A stretch of DNA of 64,000 bases, taken from positions 96,001 through 160,000 of the forward strand of contig JBMORA010000063.1 of NCBI GenBank assembly GCA_049320885.1. The letters run 5' to 3'. The translations under genes were made by a program, and so were the position numbers. This stretch comes from Thermodesulfobacteriota bacterium. GTDB lineage: Bacteria > Desulfobacterota > Desulfobacteria > Desulfobacterales > SURF-7. Shown here piece after piece: positions 33,584 through 48,240 of the stretch. The notes beneath the pieces were generated by a model. That model did not search any database and was not told the origin of the DNA. It worked only from the letters and a program-made list of their open reading frames with translations. Position 1 is the first letter of the stretch. Each line of letters opens with the position of its first letter.

Positions 33584-35041
33584 ATGAAATGGGATTTTCC
33601 TTTTCCGTTGAACATCCGGCAGAAAATCATTCTGGGATTGGTCCTGCTTTCCATCGTCATGCTGATCATCGCCGGGATTTCCTTCAATTCGCTCCTGAGG
33701 ATCGAAAGCAAGCAGCACTTCGTGGTCATCGCCGACGACCTGAGCAACATGATCCTGGAAATCCGGCGCTATGAAAAAAACTACCTTCTATATAACTCCA
33801 CCGTCGATTTGAAGGAAAACCGAAAATATATCCGGATGAGCATTCATGTTCTCGCCAGGATTTATCCGGACATAAAGGATTTCAATGTAAAGCCGCTGCT
33901 GGAGCTTCTGGAAACCAACCTGCTCGAATACGGCGGCCTCATGGAAATGATCGCCAAACAGTACAAGGAAGGGAAAAAAGCCGAAACCGTAAAATTCGAG
34001 GAAGAGTTGCGGGAACGCGGGAAAAACCTGCTGGCGCTTTCGGACGAACTGGTCTCCTTTGAAAGACGACAAATCCTCCTGATCATCAAGAACCTCAAAA
34101 CCCAGTTGCTTTCCGCCCTGGGAGTCTACATCGCCTTGAACATTTTCCTAGTCGCCGTGGTTCCCGTAAAAATCTTCAGACCCCTGCGGATCATCGAGAA
34201 AACCACCCTGCGTATCGCCCAGGGTGATTTCACGCCCATTCCGGTATCCGACAACCGCGATGAAACCCAGCGGGTGGTCCAGGCTTTCAATCGGATGGTG
34301 TCGGAACTCGAGAAACGCCAGGATCAGCTGGTGCAGGCGAAAAAGCTGTCCTCCCTGGGAACCCTGACGTCCGGGATCGCCCATCAGTTGAACAACCCGC
34401 TGAACAATATTTCGACCTCCTGTCAGATCATGATGGAGGATCTGGGGTCTCTGCTGAAGGAGCTGCCGCCATCCGATCAAGACTTTGTAAGAAAAATGCT
34501 CGGCAACATCGAACAGGAGGTTCACCGGGCCAAGGATATCGTCAAGGGGTTGCTGGAGTTTTCAAGGGAAAGAGAGTTCTGCCTGACCCCCACCCAGCTT
34601 TCCCAGGTGGTGGAACGTTCCGCCAAACTCATCTCCAGCCAAATCCCCCCCGGTATTCAGATTATCCGAAGCATCCCCGAGGATCTGCTGCTGAAAATGG
34701 ACTCCCAGCGGATGCAGCAGGTGTTTCTGAACCTCATTGAAAATGCTGTCCACGCCATGCGGGAATCTTCAGGTGAAATCCGGATAACGGCCCAGGCTTC
34801 CCCCGACAAGGAGCAGGTGGTGATATCGGTGGAGGACACGGGCAAAGGAATCCCCGCAGGAGAAATACCTCACGTTTTCGATCCATTCTATACCACCAAG
34901 GAAGTCGGCGCCGGAACGGGACTTGGGCTTTCCATCGTATACGGCATCATCCAGAAGCATTTCGGTTCGATCACCGTTGAAAGCAAGGAAGGCGAAGGAA
35001 CCCGATTTACCATCCGCCTGCCTCTTGAAACCGGTTGTTAG
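33584..35041 (+). CDS. Membrane sensor histidine kinase (helical periplasmic domain, HAMP, HisKA, HATPase)
   Basis: Two TM segments, LEIRRYEKNY, HAMP, GIAHQLNNPL, NLIENA, FDPFYTTK..GTGLGL. Confidence 0.92.
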   Translation: MKWDFPFPLNIRQKIILGLVLLSIVMLIIAGISFNSLLRIESKQHFVVIADDLSNMILEIRRYEKNYLLYNSTVDLKENRKYIRMSIHVLARIYPDIKDFNVKPLLELLETNLLEYGGLMEMIAKQYKEGKKAETVKFEEELRERGKNLLALSDELVSFERRQILLIIKNLKTQLLSALGVYIALNIFLVAVVPVKIFRPLRIIEKTTLRIAQGDFTPIPVSDNRDETQRVVQAFNRMVSELEKRQDQLVQAKKLSSLGTLTSGIAHQLNNPLNNISTSCQIMMEDLGSLLKELPPSDQDFVRKMLGNIEQEVHRAKDIVKGLLEFSREREFCLTPTQLSQVVERSAKLISSQIPPGIQIIRSIPEDLLLKMDSQRMQQVFLNLIENAVHAMRESSGEIRITAQASPDKEQVVISVEDTGKGIPAGEIPHVFDPFYTTKEVGAGTGLGLSIVYGIIQKHFGSITVESKEGEGTRFTIRLPLETGC

Positions 35042-35056: not shown

Positions 35057-36400
35057 ATGGCCATGATATTGATCGCTGAGGATGAACGCATCGCCCGGGA
35101 TAACCTGGAACACGTGCTGCGCAAGGAAGGCCATACCGTCGTGCCGGTGGAGAACGGCAAAGAGGCGATTCGCGAGCTGGAAAAACAGGAATTCGATCTG
35201 GTGATGACCGACCTGCGCATGCAGCCCGTGGACGGCATGGAAGTGCTGCGGCGGTCCAAGGAGTTATTTCCGGATACGGAAGTGATCGTCGTCACCGGCT
35301 ACGCCACCGTTACCACCGCCGTGGAGGCCATGCGCAAGGGCGCGTACTACTATGTTTCCAAGCCTTATCAAATCGAGGATGTCCGGTTCCTGGTCCGCCA
35401 GGCCGTCGAAAAAAAACAGTTGCGACGGGAAGTAGCCGATTTGAAACAAAAAGTAGATATCGCCAACACCGACACCCATCTTCTGATCGGCAACAGTCCT
35501 GCCATGCAGAATCTGAAAAACGTCATTCTCCAGGTGGCCCCCACGGATTGCAATATCCTGATCCTGGGAGAAACCGGCACCGGAAAGGAACTTGTGGCCC
35601 GGACCATTCACCATCTGAGCCCCCGGTCCGGAAGACGCTTTCTGGCCATCAACTGCGGCGCTTTCAACGAAGAATTGCTGGCCCATGAACTCTTCGGGCA
35701 TGAACGGGAGGCGTTCACCGGAGCCCGCGGGATCAAGAAAGGCCTGCTGGAATCCGTCCAGGGCGGCACGATTCTGCTGGATGAGATCGGTGACATGCCC
35801 CTGGCCATGCAGGTGAAGCTGCTGCGCGTCCTGCAGGAAAGGACCCTGTTACGCATCGGCGGCACCCAGGAAATACCCGTCGACATCCGGGTCTTGGCCG
35901 CCACCAATAAGGATTTGAAGGAAGAAGTCGAAAACGGTCATTTCCGGCAGGATTTGTACTACCGCCTCAACGTGATCACCCTGCCGGTCCCTCGCCTGGC
36001 GGACCGCCGGGACGATATTCTCATGTTGAGCCTGCATTTTTTGAAAAAAATCTCCGAAGCCCAGGGGAAACGGCTGGAATCGATTTCGGAAGCGGTGCTG
36101 GACATTCTGTTTTCCTATGAATTTCCTGGAAATGTCCGGGAACTTGAAAACATCATGGAGCGGGCCGTGACCCTCGCCGGGGGAGCATCCATCGAAATCC
36201 AACATCTGCCCTTCGATCTGCAGGAATTTGCCGGCCGGGTCAAGCGCCGCTCCCAGGAATTCCTGACCCTGGAAGAGAACGAAAAGGAATATATCGAATG
36301 GGTGCTGCACCAGGTGAACGACAACAAAACCAAGGCCGCCGAGATTCTGGGAATCGATCGGGTGTCCCTCTGGCGCAAATTGAAGCGCTACCAGCTGTGA
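35057..36400 (+). CDS. NtrC-family sigma-54-dependent response regulator
   Basis: REC, GETGTGKE, ELFGHEREAFTGA, LLDEIG, Fis-type HTH AAEILGIDRVSLWRKL. Confidence 0.93.
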   Translation: MAMILIAEDERIARDNLEHVLRKEGHTVVPVENGKEAIRELEKQEFDLVMTDLRMQPVDGMEVLRRSKELFPDTEVIVVTGYATVTTAVEAMRKGAYYYVSKPYQIEDVRFLVRQAVEKKQLRREVADLKQKVDIANTDTHLLIGNSPAMQNLKNVILQVAPTDCNILILGETGTGKELVARTIHHLSPRSGRRFLAINCGAFNEELLAHELFGHEREAFTGARGIKKGLLESVQGGTILLDEIGDMPLAMQVKLLRVLQERTLLRIGGTQEIPVDIRVLAATNKDLKEEVENGHFRQDLYYRLNVITLPVPRLADRRDDILMLSLHFLKKISEAQGKRLESISEAVLDILFSYEFPGNVRELENIMERAVTLAGGASIEIQHLPFDLQEFAGRVKRRSQEFLTLEENEKEYIEWVLHQVNDNKTKAAEILGIDRVSLWRKLKRYQL

Positions 36401-37253
36401 ATTCCTGATGTGGCGGATTTCGGCTATGCGCTCCGGGGGAAACGGCTTGGGATGTCGCCTTCGCGGCCTCGTATGCCTCCTTGAGAACCAATACCGGAAG
36501 CCCCTGATCCACGATCTTTTCCATCAGACCGGTGCGAAACGGCCACCTTCCCCTGCAACCATCCCGGCCGAGGAGAATCATGTCGAATTTCCCCCGACGG
36601 ATGCGCTGCATAATTTCGGCCGCATTTCCGGCCATCGTTTCCGGCAGGCCCCCGGACAACATTCCTCCGGCGCCGGCCTTCCTTTTGGTTGCGGCGACGA
36701 GCCGATGAACTTCCAATGAGCCGCCGTAACTCCTGGCAAGTTCAGTCGCGCGGGAGAATATCCCCGGTCCCGCCTCCGGTCCACTGGCCACCAAAAGGAC
36801 TTTTTCCCAGCCGACGACCGCCTGTTCGGGAATGACCAGCACCTCCACCTCATCCAGCCTGCGGATAATTCCGGAACGCGGGTTTCCCCTCAGCCATCTG
36901 GCTATCGGCGATTTTCGGCCGGCGCCCAGCACCACCAGGTCGAACCGGCCGCCGGCGGCGAACCCGGCGATTTCCTCGGCGGGTTCACCCGCCTCGCACC
37001 GGACACCGATGCGCATGCCTTGGGATTCCCCGGTCTCGAAAGCCTTTCCGAGAATCTCACCGGCGCGGCCCACCAGGAGCCCGTCGATGCTCCGGACGCC
37101 AACGAGACTCAGATCGCCTTGATACGAAGGGGTCACGGTGATCACCGTAACCCCTCCCTTGCCCCATTGCGCCAGGCGGATCGATTCGGCCAGGGCGTGA
37201 TAACCCGCGGCCGAACCGTTTATCGCCACCAGGATTTGATTAAGCCTCTGCAT
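36240..37253 (-). CDS. Tandem universal stress protein (second domain degenerate; 3' end overlaps the NtrC gene)
   Basis: ILVAINGS..AL..A, GEPAEEI..DLVVLGA..G; second repeat KVLLV..DMILLG..PVLVL. Confidence 0.75.
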   Translation of the reverse strand: MQRLNQILVAINGSAAGYHALAESIRLAQWGKGGVTVITVTPSYQGDLSLVGVRSIDGLLVGRAGEILGKAFETGESQGMRIGVRCEAGEPAEEIAGFAAGGRFDLVVLGAGRKSPIARWLRGNPRSGIIRRLDEVEVLVIPEQAVVGWEKVLLVASGPEAGPGIFSRATELARSYGGSLEVHRLVAATKRKAGAGGMLSGGLPETMAGNAAEIMQRIRRGKFDMILLGRDGCRGRWPFRTGLMEKIVDQGLPVLVLKEAYEAAKATSQAVSPGAHSRNPPHQEFTAGSASICARGTPDRFPESRRPWFCCRSPGAAPIRYIPFRSLPGSGIPGSGA

Positions 37254-38334
37254 ACACTTCTTTTTCAGGCGCCGCCAACCGACGGCCTTTCCACATGCTG
37301 CCGAGAATGATAACCGCCCCGACGCTGAGGGCGACACACATGAACACGAAACTGACCTTGTCCAGAACCACGGTGGTCTCCTTGCTGATGGCCAGAAGTC
37401 CCAGCTCGCGGAGATATTCCGGAATGGCCAATCCCCGGCTGACCGCCACGATCAGCATGATGGTCCCCATGACGATCTTGATCATATACTCCTTGACATA
37501 GGTGGTTCCGATGGCCCCCAGCTGAACGCCGAGCAGAGACCCGGCCAGGATGATCAGGGTCAGACGGATGTCCACCATGCCGTGGATAGCCCAATTGATG
37601 GTGCCGCCAAAGCCCATGACAAAGGCGATGACCAGTTCGGTGGCCGAAGCGATCAGGCTGGAAACCCCCATGACATAGATCATGCCGGGCACGCCCACAA
37701 ACCCGCCCACGGCAATGGTGGCGGCCAGCATTCCGGTGGCAAAGCCCACCGGAACCGTAAACCAGATGGATATTCTGATATTGGCGGTCTTGAAATAAAT
37801 CATCGGCGGCAGATGGACGGCCTGAAGCTTACGGGCCAGGGCCGATATTTTCTCCACCGCCCCGGAACGCATGGAACCAACCGCGTCCTTGAATACATAA
37901 CCGCCCACCGTCACCAGGATCACCACAAAAGACAGGCTCACATACAGGTTGGAACCCGCCTGGCCCCAGGCGTCCAGGATCCACTGCTGGATTTTAATCC
38001 CCACCTGCACGCCCACCCCGGCCGAGGCGGCCATCACCAGACCCAGTTTAATATCCACCTGGCCGTATTTAAAGCGTTTATAGGCCCCCACCAACGCCTT
38101 GGGAAACTTATGGCACATATTGCTCGCCACCGCAACCGTTCCGGGAACCCCCAGGCTCATCATTCCCGGTGTCAGGACAAAGGCGCCGCCGGAACCGATA
38201 AATCCGCTTACCAGCCCGCCGATGAATCCCACCAGGAACAGAAAAAACACGGAAGCGGCGCTCAGATCGATGAATTGCAGTGTTTGTTGGGCAAGGTCAT
38301 GCATTGGCTGTTGCTCCTTTTTTTGATGGTCCAT
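37240..38334 (-). CDS. TauE/SafE-family transporter (second paralog)
   Basis: GLVSGFIGSGGAFVLTPGMMSLGVPGTVAVASNMCHKF, ATIAVGGFVGVPG, ASATEL. Confidence 0.9.
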   Translation of the reverse strand: MDHQKKEQQPMHDLAQQTLQFIDLSAASVFFLFLVGFIGGLVSGFIGSGGAFVLTPGMMSLGVPGTVAVASNMCHKFPKALVGAYKRFKYGQVDIKLGLVMAASAGVGVQVGIKIQQWILDAWGQAGSNLYVSLSFVVILVTVGGYVFKDAVGSMRSGAVEKISALARKLQAVHLPPMIYFKTANIRISIWFTVPVGFATGMLAATIAVGGFVGVPGMIYVMGVSSLIASATELVIAFVMGFGGTINWAIHGMVDIRLTLIILAGSLLGVQLGAIGTTYVKEYMIKIVMGTIMLIVAVSRGLAIPEYLRELGLLAISKETTVVLDKVSFVFMCVALSVGAVIILGSMWKGRRLAAPEKEVYAEA

Positions 38335-38373: not shown

Positions 38374-39144
38374 CTACAAGCGGTGAAACGGATTGACATA
38401 GGCATATGTCCGCGGTTTTTTGGCGACCTTTTGTTTTTTCTGGACCGCCTTCCGCTCCACTTCCCGCAGGGCGTCTTTTTGTACGGCTTCAATGCCCAGC
38501 AGGGACCACAGGTTGCCGGCGAAGGTGCCGTGGGCAAAAGAAAACGCAAATACCGTGACCACCGGCATAGCGGCATACCAGCCACCCCGGGTAAAGAATT
38601 TCATCACCACGTCCGCATTGATGAATACCGCGGCATAGAGCAGCGCGGTCACGACACCGAATCCCGCGGTTTTGATCGCCAATTGCCTTTTCCGTTTTGT
38701 CGTTTTGTCCGCCATGAGATTTCCCCCCTTGTGTTTTTTCTTGGATAAAATGCTGAAAATCGGAAGGGGCAGGTATTCGGCGATTTTCCGGCGGTCCATA
38801 TCCGCGCTTGCCAACACAAACCCAATCCGTTTTTCCGTCACCTTGATGTCCGCCATGATCCACCCGAGATCACCTCTCTTAATCATCGACTCGCAACCGA
38901 TTCCATTGGTTTCCGCTTTGGTTCTCAATGTCTTGACCGTTTCTTCCGCCCGTTTTCTGAACCCTTCCCCCTCCCAGGCCGTATCGGCGCTCAGCACCAG
39001 CAGGTCGTGATTCAGCCGGGCCGCCAGATGAACCGCGTATTCCATGAAATCTTCCGGGAAGTTCCCTTTGTCGTCCAAAATGAGGATCTTTCTTCTTCCG
39101 CGGCTTTCCTGGTTCGAACCGATTCCCATGCCGTCCCCTGCCAT
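38374..39144 (-). CDS. USP-like domain fused in frame to a small 2-TM membrane protein (internal start likely at 38715)
   Basis: N-terminal KILIL..EYAVHLAARL..GDL; C-terminal ALLYAAVF..FTRGGWYAAMP..FSFAHG.FAGNLWSLLGIEA. Internal AAGGGGGG-N7-ATG. Confidence 0.75.
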   Translation of the reverse strand: MAGDGMGIGSNQESRGRRKILILDDKGNFPEDFMEYAVHLAARLNHDLLVLSADTAWEGEGFRKRAEETVKTLRTKAETNGIGCESMIKRGDLGWIMADIKVTEKRIGFVLASADMDRRKIAEYLPLPIFSILSKKKHKGGNLMADKTTKRKRQLAIKTAGFGVVTALLYAAVFINADVVMKFFTRGGWYAAMPVVTVFAFSFAHGTFAGNLWSLLGIEAVQKDALREVERKAVQKKQKVAKKPRTYAYVNPFHRL

Positions 39145-39242
39145 GATTACCCCACCCTCCTCTGCCGGTTTCCCGATATTTTCTTTATCTAATCGATTAT
39201 AAACGATTTTCAATCCCAATCGTTCTTTTCAAACAATACTGT

Positions 39243-39258
39243 TTCAATGATCGTGCCA
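39243..39258 (-). promoter_or_regulatory. Sigma-54 promoter of the USP/tauE operon (-12 variant TTGA)
   Basis: Minus strand TGGCACGATCATTGAA: perfect -24 element, GG-N10-GA spacing. Confidence 0.7.
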
Positions 39259-39336
39259 ATCATTCACCTGTCCCGGCCCGGCCCGCGAATCCAGGGATCC
39301 GCACATGGCGTGAAGTTCCCTGACCTCCATTTGCTA

Positions 39337-39441
39337 TTGCATATTGCAATATGGTCCTTTTTATGATTGTGTTATCTGACTAATATTAATGAATATCATA
39401 CCTGTTGTAACAGTCGGGACCGGCTGTTGCGATTTGTAACA
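39337..39441. promoter_or_regulatory. Candidate enhancer (bEBP) binding palindromes
   Basis: TTGCA-TAT-TGCAA at 39337-39349 and TGTTGC-GATTT-GTAACA near 39425-39441, about 80-180 bp upstream of the sigma-54 promoter. Confidence 0.5.
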
Positions 39442-39459: not shown

Positions 39460-41496
39460 ATGTCGCTGTTTAAAAAGCCATCAAAAACAGGCGAGACGGC
39501 GCAGCAGGGCGCCGGGGATTTATTGGAGCTGCGCACCCGGGCCAAAAAAGCCGAACTGCCGGAACCGGTATCCACCGTGGTGGGGGCCCAGCTGGATCGC
39601 CTGGAAAGCATGGACAGCTCCAGTCCGGAGTACGGCATCGGCATGGATTATGTCGCTTTTGTGCTGGCCCTGCCCTGGAACCATTTCACCGAGGACAATC
39701 TGGATCTGAAACGAGCGGAAACCATACTGGAAAAGCAGCACTTCGGGTTGCGGCACGTGAAGGAACGGATTCTGGATTTTCTGGCGGTGCGGGCCCTGTC
39801 TTCTCTTCAGGCGTTTCGAATTCTGGTGGTGGATGACGAGCCCATCGCCCGCGCCAACCTGGAGCATATTCTGCTGAAGGAGGGATACCTCGTATCCACC
39901 GCCTCCAACGGCCTGGAAGCACTGGGTCTCATGGAGCGACAGGAATTCGAGCTGGTTCTCACGGATCTGAAAATGGAAAAAATGGACGGCCTCCAGCTGC
40001 TGGCAGCCGCACGGAAAACCGCGCCGCATACCGAATTCATCATGATCACGGGGTATGCCACGGTCAACAGCGCCGTGGACGCTCTCCGGAAAGGGGCCAG
40101 TAACTATCTGGCCAAACCCGTGGATCTGAACGAATTGCGCGCCATGGTCCGCCAACTGCACAACCGAAAAAAGCATCTGCGTCTGACGCGCAGCCCCATC
40201 CTGCTGTTTTCAGGTCCTCCGGGAACCGGCAAGACCTCCCTGGGACGGGCCATCGCCGAGGCCCTGCAGCGGAAATTCGTGTGCATTTCCCTGGCCGGAC
40301 TCCGGGACGAGGCGGAACTGCACGGCCACCGCCGCACCTATGTCGGCGCCATGCCCGGCAGGCTGATCAACGAGATCAAACGTCTGGGGGTTAAGAATCC
40401 GGTTTTCATGCTGGACGAGATCGATAAGATCGGCCAGGATTTTCGCGGCGATCCGGCGGCGGTGCTGCTGGAAATCCTGGATCCGGAACAGAACAGCCGC
40501 TTCACCGACCATTATGTGGATTTGCCCTTTGACTTGTCCGGGGTCATGTTCATCGCCACCGCCAACATGGTGGACAAGCTGCCCGGCCCCCTGCGGGACC
40601 GCATGGAGAATATCCCCTTTTCCGGGTATACGGAAAAAGAAAAACAGGAAATCGCCGCGCATTATCTCATTCCGCGCCAGTTACGGGAACACTCCCTGAT
40701 ATCCCGCAACGTGGGGTTCAGTCCGGAATCGATTCTGCGGGTGATTCGCAATTATACCCTCGAGGCCGGCCTGAGAAACCTGGAACGGGAAATCGCCGCC
40801 ATCTGCCGGAAGCTCGCCCGCCTCTGCCTGCAGAATCAGGATGAAACCTCCAGCAAACCGCTGCTGGTCGATGAAAGCCTGACGGAACAACTCCTGGGGC
40901 CCCCCAAATACACCCACCAGGCAGCCGCCGCCGGACACCGGATCGGTGTGGCCACCGGACTGGTCTGGACCGAATTCGGCGGGGAAATCATCTTCGTGGA
41001 AGCGGCTTGCATGCGCGGCAGCAAGCAATTGATCCTCACCGGCTCTCTAGGCGATGTCCTGCGCGAATCCGCCCAGACCGCCATGAGCTATATCCGCAGC
41101 AACGCCCCGGGTCTGGGGATTGACCCGGATTTTTTCGACAACAGCGATATCCACATCCACATTCCCGCGGGTGCGGTATCCAAGGACGGTCCGTCCGCGG
41201 GAGTCACCATCCTGGTGGCGTTGATTTCCCTGATCACCCGGAAACCCGCCCGCCGGGACGTGGCCCTCACCGGCGAAATCACCCTCAGCGGCCGAATCCT
41301 TTCGGTCAGCGGTATCCGGGAAAAACTGCTGGCGGCCCAGCGGGCCGGAATCCGGACCGTTATCCTGCCCAAAGGGAATGAACTGGACATCGGCAACCTG
41401 GACCCCGACCTGATCAGCGGAATGAAAATCATTACGGCTGGAGAAGTCAATTCCCTGCCGGAACTTGTGCTGCTGGATACCGAAACCGCCGACTGA
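39460..41496 (+). CDS. lon: Lon-family ATP-dependent protease lacking the N-terminal domain, with a receiver domain inserted in the AAA+ module
   Basis: LPW..DLKRAETILEKQHFGLRHVKERILDFLAV, then REC, then PILLFSGPPGTGKTS, GHRRTYVGAMPG, MLDEIDK, KDGPSAG (Ser) and GIREK (Lys). Confidence 0.9.
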   Translation: MSLFKKPSKTGETAQQGAGDLLELRTRAKKAELPEPVSTVVGAQLDRLESMDSSSPEYGIGMDYVAFVLALPWNHFTEDNLDLKRAETILEKQHFGLRHVKERILDFLAVRALSSLQAFRILVVDDEPIARANLEHILLKEGYLVSTASNGLEALGLMERQEFELVLTDLKMEKMDGLQLLAAARKTAPHTEFIMITGYATVNSAVDALRKGASNYLAKPVDLNELRAMVRQLHNRKKHLRLTRSPILLFSGPPGTGKTSLGRAIAEALQRKFVCISLAGLRDEAELHGHRRTYVGAMPGRLINEIKRLGVKNPVFMLDEIDKIGQDFRGDPAAVLLEILDPEQNSRFTDHYVDLPFDLSGVMFIATANMVDKLPGPLRDRMENIPFSGYTEKEKQEIAAHYLIPRQLREHSLISRNVGFSPESILRVIRNYTLEAGLRNLEREIAAICRKLARLCLQNQDETSSKPLLVDESLTEQLLGPPKYTHQAAAAGHRIGVATGLVWTEFGGEIIFVEAACMRGSKQLILTGSLGDVLRESAQTAMSYIRSNAPGLGIDPDFFDNSDIHIHIPAGAVSKDGPSAGVTILVALISLITRKPARRDVALTGEITLSGRILSVSGIREKLLAAQRAGIRTVILPKGNELDIGNLDPDLISGMKIITAGEVNSLPELVLLDTETAD

Positions 41497-41513: not shown

Positions 41514-42317
41514 TTAGTCGGACCAATCCACCTTGCGGACGAACTGGATCTCCACCGCCTGGACCCCCGGAACCCGGCGGGCGATTTCCTCCATTTCCGC
41601 AAACATCTCCGGATGGTCGGAACTTTTGGTCGCGATGCGCACCTTCCCGCCTTCGGCGGTGACCCGGATACCCGGATTCAGGTCGATGAGCGCCGCCTTG
41701 ACTTCCGCGGCCATGGCCAGGCTCTCCAAGGCCTTCTGGGATTCATAGGTGGTCTTGAAAAGGTCCATGCCGGCGGCATGACAGATCACTTCCGCAGCTT
41801 CAGCGACCTTGATCTTGCGGATATGAATCACGAGGTCGTAGAGACTCGAATCCCAGGTATCGATGCCGTAAAGGGTTCTGCTCCACTGCTGCCTTTCCAG
41901 GTCGTCTTTTTTCAGCATTTTGATGGCCGTTTCCACGGGTATGCCGTCCCGCTCCGCCTCCAGCCTGGCGCGCTCATTGATCTCCGCGATGATCCGGACT
42001 TTCAGGGCATGGGCAACTCCCTGCAGGAAGAAATGCCCCGCCAGACCGTGATACACCACGTTGTCGCGCTTGAGGTATTTCAGGAACGCGGCTTCAAAAT
42101 AGGCGATATACCGCTCCCGGCCGTAGGTGAAGCGGTCCAGTATGGAAGGGGCGTCATGAATCGCCCGCTCCATCCGGATCTCCGGGATGTTGAATTCCCG
42201 GGAGGCCTCCAGCAGCATTTCCCGGCCGACGCATTGGAAACCCAGTTTTTTCGCCACCAGCTCCGCCACGTCTCGGCCATGACTGAAAGAACCTCTCGAA
42301 ATCGTTATAATGGCCAT
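41514..42317 (-). CDS. Cytidylate-kinase-like family protein with a C-terminal BON-like domain
   Basis: MAIITISRGSFSHG..VA..LG, VVYHGLAGHF, YDLVI, AEVKAAL..VPGV..V. Confidence 0.85.
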   Translation of the reverse strand: MAIITISRGSFSHGRDVAELVAKKLGFQCVGREMLLEASREFNIPEIRMERAIHDAPSILDRFTYGRERYIAYFEAAFLKYLKRDNVVYHGLAGHFFLQGVAHALKVRIIAEINERARLEAERDGIPVETAIKMLKKDDLERQQWSRTLYGIDTWDSSLYDLVIHIRKIKVAEAAEVICHAAGMDLFKTTYESQKALESLAMAAEVKAALIDLNPGIRVTAEGGKVRIATKSSDHPEMFAEMEEIARRVPGVQAVEIQFVRKVDWSD

Positions 42318-43545: not shown

Positions 43546-44454
43546 TCACTTATCCTGGGCGTCCATGGTTAACCGGTTGCGGCCGCCTTTTTTGCTCTGG
43601 TAGAGCAACGTATCCGCGCGTTTCAGGAGGGCAAGGGGATCGTCCGGCGATCCGGCCAGGGTGGCGCCCAGGGAAACCGTCACATGCAGCAGCTTCCCGT
43701 CGACTTTGATGCGTGTCTTTTCAACAAGCGCCCGGGTGCGCTCGCCGATATGCCGCAAAGCCGGCGCATCCACATTGCGGAAAACACCGATAAACTCTTC
43801 TCCGCCCCATCTGCCGAACAGGTCGAAGGGCCTGGTATTGACCGCCAGGGTTTTGGACACGGTTTTCAACACCAGATCACCCGCATCATGACCATGGGTA
43901 TCGTTGACCTGCTTGAAATGATCGATATCCAGCAGAATGACGCCGAAAGCCAGGCCATCCCGTTCCTTTTCGGCGAACCGGCGTTGCAATTCCAGTTCGG
44001 CATAACGCCTGTTGGCCAGCTGGGTGAGGGTGTCCAGAAACGCCAGCCGTTCCAACTCCTCGATTTTCGACCGCATGACATCCTGGGGACTGGTGTCGCT
44101 GAAAAATTCCGCGCTGCCGATGATGTCGCCCTGCCGGTTCCGCAGGGGTGTCACCCGAACCCAGACCGGCACCCGGTGTCCGTCCTTGTGATGCAGGAAC
44201 AGCTCAGCGGCCCGGTTCGCGCCGTCTTCGATGGTCCTGGCCAGCGGGCAATTCCCCAGGCACAGGGTCTCTCCCTGATCGTTCACATGCATCAGGATAT
44301 CATCCCAGCAATGCATGCCGAGCACTTCCCGGGAGGCAAATCCGGTGATCCGCTCCGCCGCCTTGTTCCAGTAAATGATCCTGCGGTCGGGATCCACGAA
44401 ATACAACCCGTCCTGAATATTCTCCATCAGATTGTTGAAATCGAAATCCATCAT
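43546..44454 (-). CDS. PAS-GGDEF diguanylate cyclase
   Basis: PAS/PAC, DTLTQLANRR, DIDHFKQVNDTHGH, RPFD I-site, RWGGEEF. Confidence 0.93.
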   Translation of the reverse strand: MMDFDFNNLMENIQDGLYFVDPDRRIIYWNKAAERITGFASREVLGMHCWDDILMHVNDQGETLCLGNCPLARTIEDGANRAAELFLHHKDGHRVPVWVRVTPLRNRQGDIIGSAEFFSDTSPQDVMRSKIEELERLAFLDTLTQLANRRYAELELQRRFAEKERDGLAFGVILLDIDHFKQVNDTHGHDAGDLVLKTVSKTLAVNTRPFDLFGRWGGEEFIGVFRNVDAPALRHIGERTRALVEKTRIKVDGKLLHVTVSLGATLAGSPDDPLALLKRADTLLYQSKKGGRNRLTMDAQDK

Positions 44455-44536: not shown

Positions 44537-46087
44537 TCAATTCGCCAATCGTTTGTTGCCTTCCCACATTTTCGCCGTCTTGGGAGACAGCGTCAGATAT
44601 TGGAACCATGGATGACTCTTCAAATGTTCCGGATCCATTTGCAGTTCCCGGCTGTGGCGCAGAATGGGGGCCACGATTTTGCGGATATCGCCGTCCAGGT
44701 CCTTGGCGATGGTGAAGGCAGCGGCCCGGACAGCCGCATCCACCGCTTTTTGACTGAACTGCTGGGATTGGGCCAATGTATGCATGGCCTTGGTCGGGTT
44801 GTGGAAACCCACGCTGTTTTCCGCGGATACATAATCCCAGAAAAATTGTCCTTTGCGGCACCACTGCCGGGCCTCAATCAGCTTCTCCTCGTAATCGGCC
44901 GGTTTTTCCCCCTGGTATTCCGACGCCAGCCGGATGGCCTCATGGGCCTTGACGGAGATGTCCTGGGCCGTCATCAGCTGTTCCCAGACCTTATGCTGGG
45001 TAAACAGCACCCGTTCCCGCAGGAAAGCGGGGGTTTTATCCGTATGGCACTGGCGGCAGGCCTTGAGATCCGGATCCTTGAGCGGCGAAGTCCAGTGATG
45101 GGAGGAGATTTTTTTCTTTCCATCCAGGCGGACATAACTCATGTGGCAATCGGCGCAGACGACTCCGGCGGCCCCGTGGACCCCGTTGGACCACATTTCG
45201 TATTCCGGGTGCTGGGCCTTGAGCATGGGCGTCTTGGAAACCGGATGGGTCCAATCCACGAAATTGCCTTCAAAACCCTTGAGGGCGCATTCGCCGTGCG
45301 TTTTGTAATACGTATAGATTTGTTCCGGGTCGAACCCTTCGGTCCAGGGGAAAACCGGTTTTTTGGCCGGACCGAAACTCTTGTCCTGAAAATAATATTC
45401 CACATGGCACTGCCCGCAGACCAATGCGCGCTGTTCGTTGCGCGGCAGGCTCTTGAACTCCTTGCCCTGGCCAGCCAGATAGTCCTTCAACGGAACGCTG
45501 TACAGCCGCAGTTCCATATTCCGGGGATCATGGCAGTTGGCGCAGCCGATGGTGTCCTCCTCCAGGTCGACTTTTTCCCGGAATTCGTTGAAATCCTTTG
45601 CCCAGTAATCGTCCCCGTTCTCCTTGAGAAAAGTGTTCATCTTGGCGGTTTTGCAGTTCATGCAGGTGGCGGGAAGCCCGGCCTTCACGTCATAGCGGTT
45701 CAGGCGGTCGATGTTCAGGATATCCTTCATGGCGTAGGTATGGCCCCGGGCGGCCCGGTATTCGTAGCTGAAGGGGTAGCCCAGCCAGAGATTTTTCAAA
45801 TAGGGCTGGGCGTGTTTATACCCCTCGGGCAGGGGATTGACATTGTCATGTTTGTTATAGGCCACGGAGCCGCCGTACTCGGTCATGATCTCCGATTCAT
45901 TGTTCCGGAGGTAGGTTTCATAGTGCAGGGGGAATTCCGGTTTGAAGGCGGAGTTGCGGATTTCCTCCTCGGACAGCTCGGTCTGATATACGGGCGTCGC
46001 CGGTTCCTGGACATCCGCGCATCCGTTGACGAAAGGCAAAGCGGTAAGGATCAGAACGAGAATCATGGGGATAGCGGTGTTACGCAT
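44537..46087 (-). CDS. nrfA: Ammonia-forming cytochrome c nitrite reductase, catalytic subunit c552
   Basis: Lipobox VNGC; hemes CMNCK (Lys-ligated active site), CANCH, CGQCHVEYYF, CADCH, CRQCH; KAQHPEYE, AENSVGFHNP. Confidence 0.95.
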   Translation of the reverse strand: MRNTAIPMILVLILTALPFVNGCADVQEPATPVYQTELSEEEIRNSAFKPEFPLHYETYLRNNESEIMTEYGGSVAYNKHDNVNPLPEGYKHAQPYLKNLWLGYPFSYEYRAARGHTYAMKDILNIDRLNRYDVKAGLPATCMNCKTAKMNTFLKENGDDYWAKDFNEFREKVDLEEDTIGCANCHDPRNMELRLYSVPLKDYLAGQGKEFKSLPRNEQRALVCGQCHVEYYFQDKSFGPAKKPVFPWTEGFDPEQIYTYYKTHGECALKGFEGNFVDWTHPVSKTPMLKAQHPEYEMWSNGVHGAAGVVCADCHMSYVRLDGKKKISSHHWTSPLKDPDLKACRQCHTDKTPAFLRERVLFTQHKVWEQLMTAQDISVKAHEAIRLASEYQGEKPADYEEKLIEARQWCRKGQFFWDYVSAENSVGFHNPTKAMHTLAQSQQFSQKAVDAAVRAAAFTIAKDLDGDIRKIVAPILRHSRELQMDPEHLKSHPWFQYLTLSPKTAKMWEGNKRLAN

Positions 46088-46553
46088 CGGCGGCGCTCCT
46101 TTTGGCTACGGGGATTCTGAGGGTATGGGGTACATGGCGGTGACAATCCGTGCAATAAGGCTTGGCGGTCATGTTCACCCCTTCAAAAACGGCTCCGTGA
46201 CATCGCCGGCAGTTTTCCCGGACAACCGCTCGGGTCTCAACGCCGGCATGAATCAGATCGGGAATGCTGCTGGTCGCCGTCGCTGCGATATCACGCAGGC
46301 CTTCCTTGGTCTTGAAGGGAATCTTGGCGGCCAGGTTATGGGGCGCATGACATTCGTTGCAGGACAACTTGGCATGCAATGACTTGGAGTGGGTCAGCAT
46401 TGCTTCGGACATGGAATGGCAGCCACCGCAGAAACCGGGCTGATCCGTGGTCGTCATCGCCAGGGAGGAACCGATGGTGATTCCGGCGCCGGCAATCAAC
46501 GCCAGGAAGATGACGCCCCATATTGCGGCGCCTCCTGTTGGTTTCAAGCTCAT
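46080..46553 (-). CDS. nrfH: Tetraheme quinol dehydrogenase NrfH (NapC/NirT family)
   Basis: One TM; CGGCHSM, CNECH, CRRCH, CTDCH; overlaps the nrfA start. Confidence 0.93.
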   Translation of the reverse strand: MSLKPTGGAAIWGVIFLALIAGAGITIGSSLAMTTTDQPGFCGGCHSMSEAMLTHSKSLHAKLSCNECHAPHNLAAKIPFKTKEGLRDIAATATSSIPDLIHAGVETRAVVRENCRRCHGAVFEGVNMTAKPYCTDCHRHVPHTLRIPVAKRSAADA

Positions 46554-46747
46554 ATTCCCTCCATGCATGGATGTAACGCCGGTCTTCCGGCAGTTAGGGC
46601 ACTCCCGTCATCAGGATAAACACGGATTTCCGCCGATCGGACTCCGCCCGATGGTCGCTGCGCAATTTGGTTTCGGGATGGAAAAGACGGTGGCTCTTCC
46701 GTACGCCGCCACTGCGGGAGAAGCAGAAAAGCCCGGCTTGAAATGGT

Positions 46748-46812: not shown

Positions 46813-48240
46813 TCACCCGGCCGGCGAAAGGGACTTGACGATGTCACCGAGAAGGCGGATGCCGTTTTCCATTTCCGCGGTAAAGGGATGACCGCAGCTG
46901 ATACGGAGGCAGTTCCGGTATTTCCCGGTTCCGGAACAGATCAGGCCCGGGGCGACGAAAATCCGGTTTTCCTTGGCCAGTTCGAACACCTGCATTCCGT
47001 CAACGCCCGGCTCCATTTCCACCCACAGCACAAATCCGCCCCTGGGAGCGGTCAGCCGGGTTTGGGCGGGAAAATACCGGGCCACCGCCTGGGCCGTGTT
47101 GGCCATCTGGTGCTTCACGTTTTTTCGCAACTTGCGCAGATGCCGATCATAGGCGCCTTCCTTCAGAAAAGCGGCGATGATCAATTGGTTCAATTTGGAA
47201 GTGGTCATGGAGGAATTGATTTTCAGCCGTTTGACCTGGGGCATGAAGCGTCCCGGCAGGGTCCAGCCGATGCGCAGATCCGGGGCCAAAGTTTTGGAAA
47301 AGGAGGAGCAATGCAGCACCATGCCTTTCCGGTCGTGACTTTTCAAGGTCGCGGGCCGGGAATCGCCGAAATACAGATCGCCGTATATGTCGTCTTCGAT
47401 GATGGGGATGTTCCGGCGAGCCATCATGGCCACCAGTTCCTGCTTGGCCGCGTCGGGCATTTCAAAACCCAGCGGATTCTGAAAATTGGGATTGAGAATG
47501 CAGGCACTGACCCGGTTTTTCTTGATGGCCTGTCCCACGGAAGCCAAATCGATTCCGGTTTCCGGATCGGTGGGCGTCTCCAGGGCATACATATTCAGGT
47601 CCTCGATGAGTTGCAGGTAGCAGACAAACGTCGGCGACTCCACCAGGACCGTGTCTCCGGTTCTGGCAACGGCCCGCAGGCAAAGCTGGACCGCCTCCAT
47701 GCAGCCGCTGGTGATCAGGATGTCGTCCTCATGGGTTTCGGGATGGAATCCGACGGATCTTCTGCTGATCTGCCGCCGGAGCAGAGGACTGCCGGTGGGC
47801 GGGCCGTAACCGATGTCCGCATTTCGAATGTAGCGGCCGCAGACGGAACGTATGGTTTTGGCCAGGGCCTTGACGGGCATCAATTCCGCCGCCGCCACGG
47901 CGGTTCCCAGCGGCAGCAGGCCCGGGTCGGCGGCGGACTCCAGGATAAACTCCACCAGCGCGTTGACCGACACCTTCCTGGGACCTGCAGATGGTCTTTT
48001 CATCGTCGGCCGGGGCAGGATCGCGTCCATGCGGGGCCGGACATAAAAACCGGATTTATGGCGCGCCTCCACCATGCCGCGCTTTTCCAGCTCGATATAG
48101 GCGTGATAGACCGTGGAAAGACTCAGGCCCGTGTTGGCGTGCAAATCCCGGAGGGAAGGCAGTTTTTCCCCGGCCCGGAAGCCGCCGTTTTCGATTTTTC
48201 CCCCGATTTCATCCGCGAGACCGATGTACCGGAACGACAT
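46813..48240 (-). CDS. MocR/GabR-type GntR regulator (wHTH plus PLP aminotransferase domain)
   Basis: GEKLPSLR..STVYHAYIELE..G..SGFYV, IIEDDIY, SFSKTLAPDLRIGW. Confidence 0.92.
   Translation of the reverse strand: MSFRYIGLADEIGGKIENGGFRAGEKLPSLRDLHANTGLSLSTVYHAYIELEKRGMVEARHKSGFYVRPRMDAILPRPTMKRPSAGPRKVSVNALVEFILESAADPGLLPLGTAVAAAELMPVKALAKTIRSVCGRYIRNADIGYGPPTGSPLLRRQISRRSVGFHPETHEDDILITSGCMEAVQLCLRAVARTGDTVLVESPTFVCYLQLIEDLNMYALETPTDPETGIDLASVGQAIKKNRVSACILNPNFQNPLGFEMPDAAKQELVAMMARRNIPIIEDDIYGDLYFGDSRPATLKSHDRKGMVLHCSSFSKTLAPDLRIGWTLPGRFMPQVKRLKINSSMTTSKLNQLIIAAFLKEGAYDRHLRKLRKNVKHQMANTAQAVARYFPAQTRLTAPRGGFVLWVEMEPGVDGMQVFELAKENRIFVAPGLICSGTGKYRNCLRISCGHPFTAEMENGIRLLGDIVKSLSPAG

Follow-up and report, generated by a model that had tools for sequence, protein, structure and literature searches.

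A LonA-type protease with a receiver domain built into its ATPase module, encoded beside a sensor kinase, a sigma54 regulator and a TauE-family transporter in a Thermodesulfobacteriota genome

The window analysed in this study, a stretch of 64,000 nucleotides, carries a plus-strand gene for a Lon protease that contains a response-regulator receiver (REC) domain, referred to here as REC-Lon, within a cassette resembling one of Desulfovibrio vulgaris Hildenborough (DVU genes). The genes are the following.

33584..35041, plus strand: membrane sensor kinase of 2 TM-HAMP-HisKA-HATPase build, like DVU3304 (Pfam, sequence)
35057..36400, plus strand: sigma54-dependent response regulator, like DVU3305 (Pfam; its REC is the closest to the Lon REC)
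36240..37253, minus strand: USP protein, like DVU3298 (Pfam, locus comparison)
37240..38334, minus strand: TauE/SafE-family anion transporter, like DVU3299 (Pfam, locus counts)
38374..39219, minus strand: degenerate USP-like domain fused to a small membrane protein (relatives match Usp weakly)
39460..41496, plus strand: REC-Lon gene, 678 aa (ORF, Pfam, structure alignment, AlphaFold model)
41514..42317, minus strand: cytidylate-kinase-like protein, a frequent cassette accessory (Pfam)

By size and order the USP-like/membrane fusion resembles DVU3301 plus DVU3300, and its true start is probably about 25 codons downstream of the TTG. The USP frame (36240-37253) has no stop where its relatives end (~256-285 aa) and overlaps the regulator gene, at its 3' end, by about 160 nt; the stop codon has probably been lost. 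The sigma54-contact motif of the regulator (35057-36400) reads EAFTGA, not GAFTGA, and the same was seen in a relative at locus L114. Further along lie a PAS-GGDEF gene (43546-44454, minus strand) and nrfA/nrfH-type cytochrome c nitrite reductase genes (44537-46568, minus strand), beside which a divergent regulator (46813-48240, plus strand) is of GntR/MocR appearance.

REC-Lon is organised, from the N-terminus, as a Phe-basic motif, a three-helix bundle, helix α0, the REC insert, the AAA+ domain, the lid and the Ser-Lys protease domain. The positions within the gene that are used below are:

39460..39477, plus strand: N-terminal hydrophobic-Phe-basic motif MSLFKK (motif count; tail predicted disordered)
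39820..40152, plus strand: receiver domain, aa 121-231 (Pfam, conservation, AlphaFold model)
39964-39966, plus strand: REC phospho-acceptor D169 (residue conservation)
40213..40236, plus strand: Walker A, G252-T259 (ORF, residue conservation)
41194..41325, plus strand: catalytic dyad S579 and K622 (S579 at 41194-41196, K622 at 41323-41325; alignment, conservation)

Pfam analysis of the 678-aa protein identified Response_reg at aa 121-231 (E 1e-28), AAA at 248-385, Lon_lid at 410-462 and Lon_C at 470-669 (E 2e-74), and found no Lon N-domain family. LonA chains from the PDB aligned in two pieces, aa 15/18-114 and 242/244-674, and in the structure-chain alignment aa 15 corresponds to residue 240 of M. 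taiwanensis LonA; both results bear out the loss of the N-terminal domain that the first-pass annotation of this DNA had reported. With 679.5 bits the protein scores above the TIGR00763 lon cut-off of 608.05 bits, but is regarded as a non-canonical LonA because the N-terminal substrate-recognition domain and the long helix of LonA (S16A) are absent. From the α0 Arg to the Walker A Gly there are 149 residues in REC-Lon and 23 in the three canonical Lons also encoded by the genome, and the REC insert is therefore 126 residues long. It occupies the alpha0-beta1 loop, between helix α0 and the Walker A strand; the earlier placing of a receiver at ~39814-40170 (aa 119-237), between VKERILDFLAV and Walker A, was correct.

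The insert holds the residues of a canonical phosphorylatable receiver, namely the acidic pocket D125-D126-E127, the Asp acceptor D169, the Thr and aromatic switch pair T197 and Y216, and the Lys-Pro K219-P220. The ATPase residues are Walker A G252-T259, pore Y294, Walker B D319-E320, N369, R381 and R439; the Walker A/B, sensor 1, arginine finger, sensor 2 and pore Tyr of a LonA (S16A) AAA+ module are all found, in the same chain as the protease, whose domain has the Ser-Lys dyad of that class (S579/K622). Across 110 full-length sequences, query included and a subset of the 120 matches listed, the receiver, ATPase and dyad residues are invariant or nearly so, with S579 kept in 109/110 and K622 in 107/110. 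This confirmed that the receiver has all its key residues and that Walker A/B and the dyad are intact, as had been noted from the letters. With LonA (endopeptidase La; TIGR00763; B. subtilis 3m6a, M. taiwanensis 4ypl and 7fd4, E. coli 6u5z) the protein has in common the three-helix bundle, AAA+ domain, lid and Ser-Lys protease; it differs by the missing N-domain and long helix, the REC insert and the Phe-basic motif. On these comparisons of sequence, REC-Lon is an intact, N-domain-less LonA with a receiver built into the ATPase module.

An assembly chimaera was rejected: all 120 listed matches have REC and AAA Pfam domains, and REC-Lon with the same junction was found in 73 of the 80 genome loci. 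A longer N-terminus from the in-frame TTG at 39367 was also rejected, because relatives begin at a shared Met-x-Phe-Phe-basic motif. Motifs of the MSLFKK type were present in 82/88, 97/104 and 72/79 full-length sequences (251/271 in total), in 1/37 of the ATPase-dead short forms described below and in 34/4031 ORFs of the genome. Residues 1-13 had pLDDT <50 in the AlphaFold model, the tail being predicted disordered, and the motif is possibly a membrane or docking anchor.

A query spanning the junction was searched against 301 genomes sampled from the phylum (E ≤ 1e-35). It matched in 41 of them, and REC-Lon was present in 39, two of those partial; the matches in G071 and G198 were regulators, and an apparent second, truncated copy in G305 was a contig-end fragment. 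A second search gave 79 further full-length REC-Lons, those with taxon names being Nitrospirota, in all of which the catalytic residues are intact (80 with the query), and the residue conservation spans two phyla. Matches in the ESM Atlas were to REC-AAA/Lon clusters only. A tree on the columns outside the insert grouped the REC-Lons together against five canonical Lons with weak support (0.48), and a single origin of the family is likely from these sequences. The Gly five residues before the catalytic Lys is mostly Ser or Ala in the non-Nitrospirota REC-Lon sets.

The family also includes short forms. Thirty-eight relatives of ≤460 aa were found that keep all receiver residues and have neither lid nor protease, with the Walker B Glu retained in 4/38; one of them, P0312, proved to be a broken sequence of the full type, and the later counts leave it out (38 to 37). 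The subfamily (P0141, P0150, P0221, P0269 and P0274-P0293 among its members) is mostly 350-385 aa in length, with an intact REC and a degenerate ATPase, and its named members are Nitrospirota. The 22 short forms tested formed one clade (0.987) inside the Nitrospirota-labelled REC-Lons, a placement subject to a long-branch caveat. The REC-to-Walker-A linker is shortened in 31/37 ATPase-dead forms, and N133 of receiver helix 1 is replaced in all 13 examined; because helix 1 is changed, these forms are probably a derived side branch that works with a different kinase. A metagenome scan for the context of the short forms gave full-length REC-Lons and unrelated RECs among the 13 of 79 loci that were inspected. 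The longest contig was of 47,950 bases for both P0321 (short) and P0389 (full-length), which may be neighbours.

The genes around REC-Lon recur with it, in counts that are not independent since the cassette genomes are related. TauE was found in 56/60 loci with enough upstream DNA, the kinase in 30/33 and the regulator in 31/33 loci with both flanks, and the cytidylate-kinase-like gene in 20/60 loci having at least 3.5 kb upstream; the kinase family is present in 38/39 REC-Lon genomes. At some loci a CitMHS/TrkA_C transporter is found in place of TauE; at L111, L112, L113, L132, L194 and L195, which form one branch, a 604-aa CitMHS/TrkA_C protein is encoded beside REC-Lon and the USP-like gene. 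A REC-Lon match was absent from 14 of 40 genomes with a TauE orthologue, a full-profile recheck of five of these 14 found no REC-Lon, and three loci inspected have TauE, kinase and regulator without it. An obligatory role of Lon in the signalling pathway was thus rejected; as the cassette occurs without Lon, the protease is an output added on to it. A role of the USP-like protein as substrate or adaptor specific to Lon was likewise rejected, since a profile search found it in the REC-Lon-less cassettes L072, L075, L122, L192 and L193. A kinase-regulator-TauE-membrane protein cassette was also seen at L080 (G303), in a record labelled Solirubrobacterales whose genome has no REC-Lon match. Often the REC-Lon cassette is adjoined by a second TauE cassette, a paralogue of ~30% identity, by a PPDK-like (PEP-utilising) gene that has a kinase of its own, or by both (L007, L010, L026, L045, L047, L114, L146).

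Two candidate regulatory sites were located between the divergent genes:

39244..39258, minus strand: sigma54-type -24/-12 box with an atypical TTGA, pointing into the USP-like/TM-TauE-USP operon
39336..39350, no strand assigned: palindrome TTGC-N5-GCAA, predicted site of the cassette sigma54 regulator (upstream-region count)

The palindrome occurs in 60/87 regions upstream of lon against 0.8 expected, and the copy at 39336-39350 is the only one in the window. The DVU3305 site in Table S7 of Rajeev 2011 has the same palindrome pattern as the letters at 39337-39349 (PMC3333781). A sigma54 box toward the TauE operon was found on that strand in 30/87 regions against 0.7 expected; in the window alone it is not above chance. 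Its -12 element is a conserved TTGA, not TTGC, and lies ~82-96 bp from the palindrome in the window and 29 loci. A sigma54 promoter for lon itself (2/87 regions against 0.7 expected) was unsupported.

DVU3303 of D. vulgaris Hildenborough has been described as a response regulator with a Lon protease, for which activation by phosphorylation was proposed in 2011 (PMC3333781). Two further sources used below, PMC4641369 and PMC10102598, are Kazakov 2015 and Trotter 2023, respectively. The system comprises the linked kinase DVU3304, the sigma54 regulator DVU3305 and the targets DVU3298-3302 (PMC3333781, PMC10102598, PMC4641369), and its regulon is listed in PMC4641369. With sizes taken from coordinates, DVU3303 (702 codons) is, like REC-Lon, divergent from a USP/transporter operon, and the USP (260 aa), transporter (356 aa), 97-aa and 180-aa proteins, kinase (492 aa) and regulator (451 aa) match the present cassette. 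A receiver in Lon, a linked kinase, sigma54 regulator and divergent operon, and a DVU3305-type palindrome are all present at our locus. The locus differs from that of D. vulgaris in that kinase and regulator are located beyond the TauE operon instead of downstream from lon, in that a single gene encodes the USP-like domain and the small membrane protein, and in that the gene after lon is cytidylate-kinase-like. By layout, gene sizes and palindrome, REC-Lon is a member of the DVU3303 family. The same USP-TauE-TM-USP-like/Lon layout was found in Nitratidesulfovibrio liaohensis (locus L059, at 51%). The naming of DVU3303 in the first-pass annotation, as a similar protein beside a comparable operon, agrees with literature and gene table. 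Searches covering literature other than subscription journals, combined-topic searches for a receiver-Lon mechanism included, found no mechanistic characterisation, as the annotation had also stated.

Genetic data exist for the D. vulgaris system. According to PMC10102598, DVU3303-3305 are detrimental in chlorate with a cofitness >0.9 and the transporter DVU3299 is needed; its tables place DVU3303, DVU3304 and DVU3305 in one overlapping run with lon first, so the cofitness may be polar, a word absent from the text of that paper. In the same source, insertions in DVU3299/DVU3300 are under-represented (normalised reads 0.58/0.19 and 0.35/0.13 in two libraries), those in DVU3303-3305 are not (3.0-3.6 and about 1.5), and the neighbours DVU3298, 3301 and 3306 have values of 1.4-2.2. 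If all that the regulator did were to induce a useful transporter, it should carry no cost; these data would fit a transporter restraining the sensor, together with a harmful second output such as Lon.

The receiver of REC-Lon has its origin in the cassette itself. In a REC search of its own genome (169 hit rows), the best match was the REC of the neighbouring sigma54 regulator (51%, E 2.7e-35), the next being at 1.2e-23. A tree of 279 receivers placed 109 RECs of Lons, 13 of dead forms and 56 of cognate regulators in one clade (FastTree 0.954), outside which fell 95 other RECs of the genome and six non-cognate regulators. As judged from this match and tree, the Lon REC is a duplicate of the neighbouring regulator REC. 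Helix 1 carries kinase specificity (PMC2991266). N133 in this helix is found in 96% of the Lon RECs, in all cognate regulators (100%) and in none of the 95 other RECs (0%), and the regulator at the locus equals the Lon REC at 7/7 chosen helix-1 positions (other RECs ≤3); by these residues, the helix-1 kinase-docking face is common to the two receivers. The beta5-alpha5 loop is another strong specificity determinant (PMC2991266), and residue 221 in it differs between Lon and cognate regulator in 46/46 locus pairs, being mostly Ile/Val/Phe in Lon and Tyr/Phe in the regulator. True Lon-regulator pairs of RECs scarcely exceed shuffled ones in similarity at most positions.

At 34382-34396 (plus strand) the sensor kinase has His-Gln-x-x-Asn instead of His-Glu/Asp-x-x-Asn. 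The phosphatase Asn (N271) and the ATP-binding boxes are intact around H267-Q268, and Gln follows the phospho-His in 39/57 family kinases, the cassette kinase included. In CrdS and NtrB, the change of E to Q after the His abolished kinase activity and kept phosphatase activity (PMC3510030), and by analogy the motif suggests a phosphatase-biased sensor. Three close relatives of the kinase have Glu at this position, and Gln is thus not necessarily the mark of a dead kinase.

Both linkers flanking the REC are free of indels in 89/89, 109/109 and 79/79 full-length sequences (277/277; the sets overlap and are related), unlike the lid-protease linker, which varies in length. An AlphaFold2 model of REC-Lon from a 110-row alignment (pLDDT 85.6, pTM 0.79) shows REC alpha5 as one helix (223-243) running into strand 247-251 before Walker A, and alpha0 extended to residue 116; the Lon part superimposes on B. 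subtilis 3m6a with a target TM-score of 0.94 and an rmsd of 2.8. The fixed linker lengths in the alignments, with the modelled continuity of REC helix 5 into the P-loop strand, favour allosteric gating; invariant linker length also fits a purely steric constraint. An equivalent engineered truncation of M. taiwanensis LonA (242-793) kept ATPase, peptidase and casein degradation and lost the degradation of damaged proteins (PMC8087443). Because that truncation stays active, REC-Lon should, by analogy, be an active, specialised protease that needs a switch. We infer that the receiver is this switch, and also the direction in which it works.

Several known systems are comparable. In NtrC1-type sigma54 activators the REC controls an AAA+ ring, and phosphorylation relieves the repression of the ring by the REC. 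Their receivers (1ny5, 4l4u) are the best-matching solved RECs, alpha5 extension included; in these activators the REC is N-terminal and the output is transcription, whereas REC-Lon has it within the ATPase domain, with a protease as output. In RssB-ClpXP and CpdR-ClpXP, Asp phosphorylation controls ATP-dependent proteolysis through separate adaptors of a housekeeping protease, and a single kinase pathway supplies a regulator of proteolysis as well as a transcription factor. In the case of CpdR, a free adaptor, phosphorylation shuts proteolysis off. In REC-Lon, in contrast to both, every protease subunit has its own receiver.

We give an even chance to a mechanism in which the neighbouring sensor sets the state of D169 and phosphorylation switches ATPase activity or ring assembly, and thus proteolysis, on, REC-Lon being a dedicated, REC-gated protease whose sensor is common to the sigma54 regulator. 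A Lon without its N-domain would be a constitutive protease of disordered proteins and would need an off-switch. The unphosphorylated REC may restrain Lon through a rigid alpha5-beta1 lever on the P-loop, or else through an NtrC1-like REC dimer that would not fit a head-to-tail ring. The TauE/USP/small-membrane-protein complex would control the sensor, which, because of its His-Gln, may act mainly as a signal-inhibited phosphatase, and the phosphoryl groups could come from weak autokinase activity or acetyl-phosphate. One signal would then act on transcription, namely that of the TauE operon, and in parallel on proteolysis, with substrates that are probably few and dedicated rather than damaged proteins. 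Within gating, activation by phosphorylation is the probable direction. Quite unlikely as a whole is a more detailed version, in which the motor is gated by Asp phosphorylation via the rigid REC helix, acetyl-phosphate rather than a conventional kinase sets the mark, a transporter-coupled, phosphatase-biased sensor erases it, the Phe-basic motif is a membrane anchor, and the Nitrospirota dead REC-AAA proteins are separately phosphorylated regulatory subunits.

The direct gating of the AAA+ protease put forward in the first-pass annotation therefore stands in part: the invariant linkers, the modelled helix from alpha5 to Walker A and the full conservation of both modules speak for it, and the His-Gln of the kinase, the difference at residue 221 and the REC forms without protease or ATPase complicate it. 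It is conceivable, though unlikely, that the REC is a substrate-recruiting or localising module in place of the lost N-domain, with a motor independent of phosphorylation (feedback proteolysis), and that it brings in cassette proteins by binding to the sensor kinase or forming a pair with the regulator REC. Such a role is consistent with the coincidence of N-domain loss and REC gain in the family, the common kinase-docking face, the restriction of the Phe-basic motif to protease-bearing forms save for the single dead form, and a cassette that works without Lon, as expected of a tuning add-on. A tether would, however, tolerate linker indels, and none occurs in 277/277; negative feedback also predicts opposite phenotypes for lon and regulator, yet those observed have the same sign, unless through polarity.

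A further reading, quite improbable, sees REC-Lon chiefly as a scaffold or phosphate sink by which the kinase-regulator pair is tuned, the protease being incidental or separately controlled. The 37 short relatives keep every REC residue without lid or protease, and a REC-AAA scaffold is therefore selectable without proteolysis; their near-complete loss of the Walker B Glu and their origin within the REC-Lons point the same way. Against this, full-length members keep every ATPase and protease residue, and the dead forms, with their changed helix 1, are probably the side branch of another kinase. Gating in the inverse sense, with unphosphorylated REC-Lon active and phosphorylation shutting proteolysis off as with CpdR, draws on the same linkers and model and would turn a phosphatase-biased sensor into an activator; it too is quite improbable, as the closest solved RECs are of NtrC1 type (4l4u, 1ny5) and the same-sign phenotype of the three DVU genes fits co-activation, if not polar. 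That the REC is a tolerated surface-loop passenger of an ordinary spare Lon is extremely improbable: the insertion site is a loop, the genome has three canonical Lons and the gene is dispensable to the cassette, but phospho-site residues invariant across two phyla, the linkage to TauE (56/60) and the fixed linker lengths all argue against it.

The known cases of phosphorylation-controlled proteolysis rely on separate adaptors, such as RssB and CpdR. If phosphorylation gates the motor directly, a receiver in every motor subunit would switch an AAA+ protease without such an intermediary and would offer a compact model of how ring assembly is controlled allosterically. REC-Lons are common in anaerobes, as seen in 39/301 genomes sampled from the phylum, and in D. 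vulgaris the system influences how well chlorate is tolerated, a matter of relevance to controlling oil souring (PMC10102598). The architecture and the phospho-activation hypothesis have been in print since 2011 and are known in outline; what the present analysis adds is a set of candidate residues for mutation, a reason to suspect that the kinase is a phosphatase and a case for complementing the existing genetics with non-polar alleles. Another arrangement was seen in P0131, P0171, P0215 and P0223, which are Lons with two tandem three-helix-bundle/AAA+ modules followed by a single protease domain.
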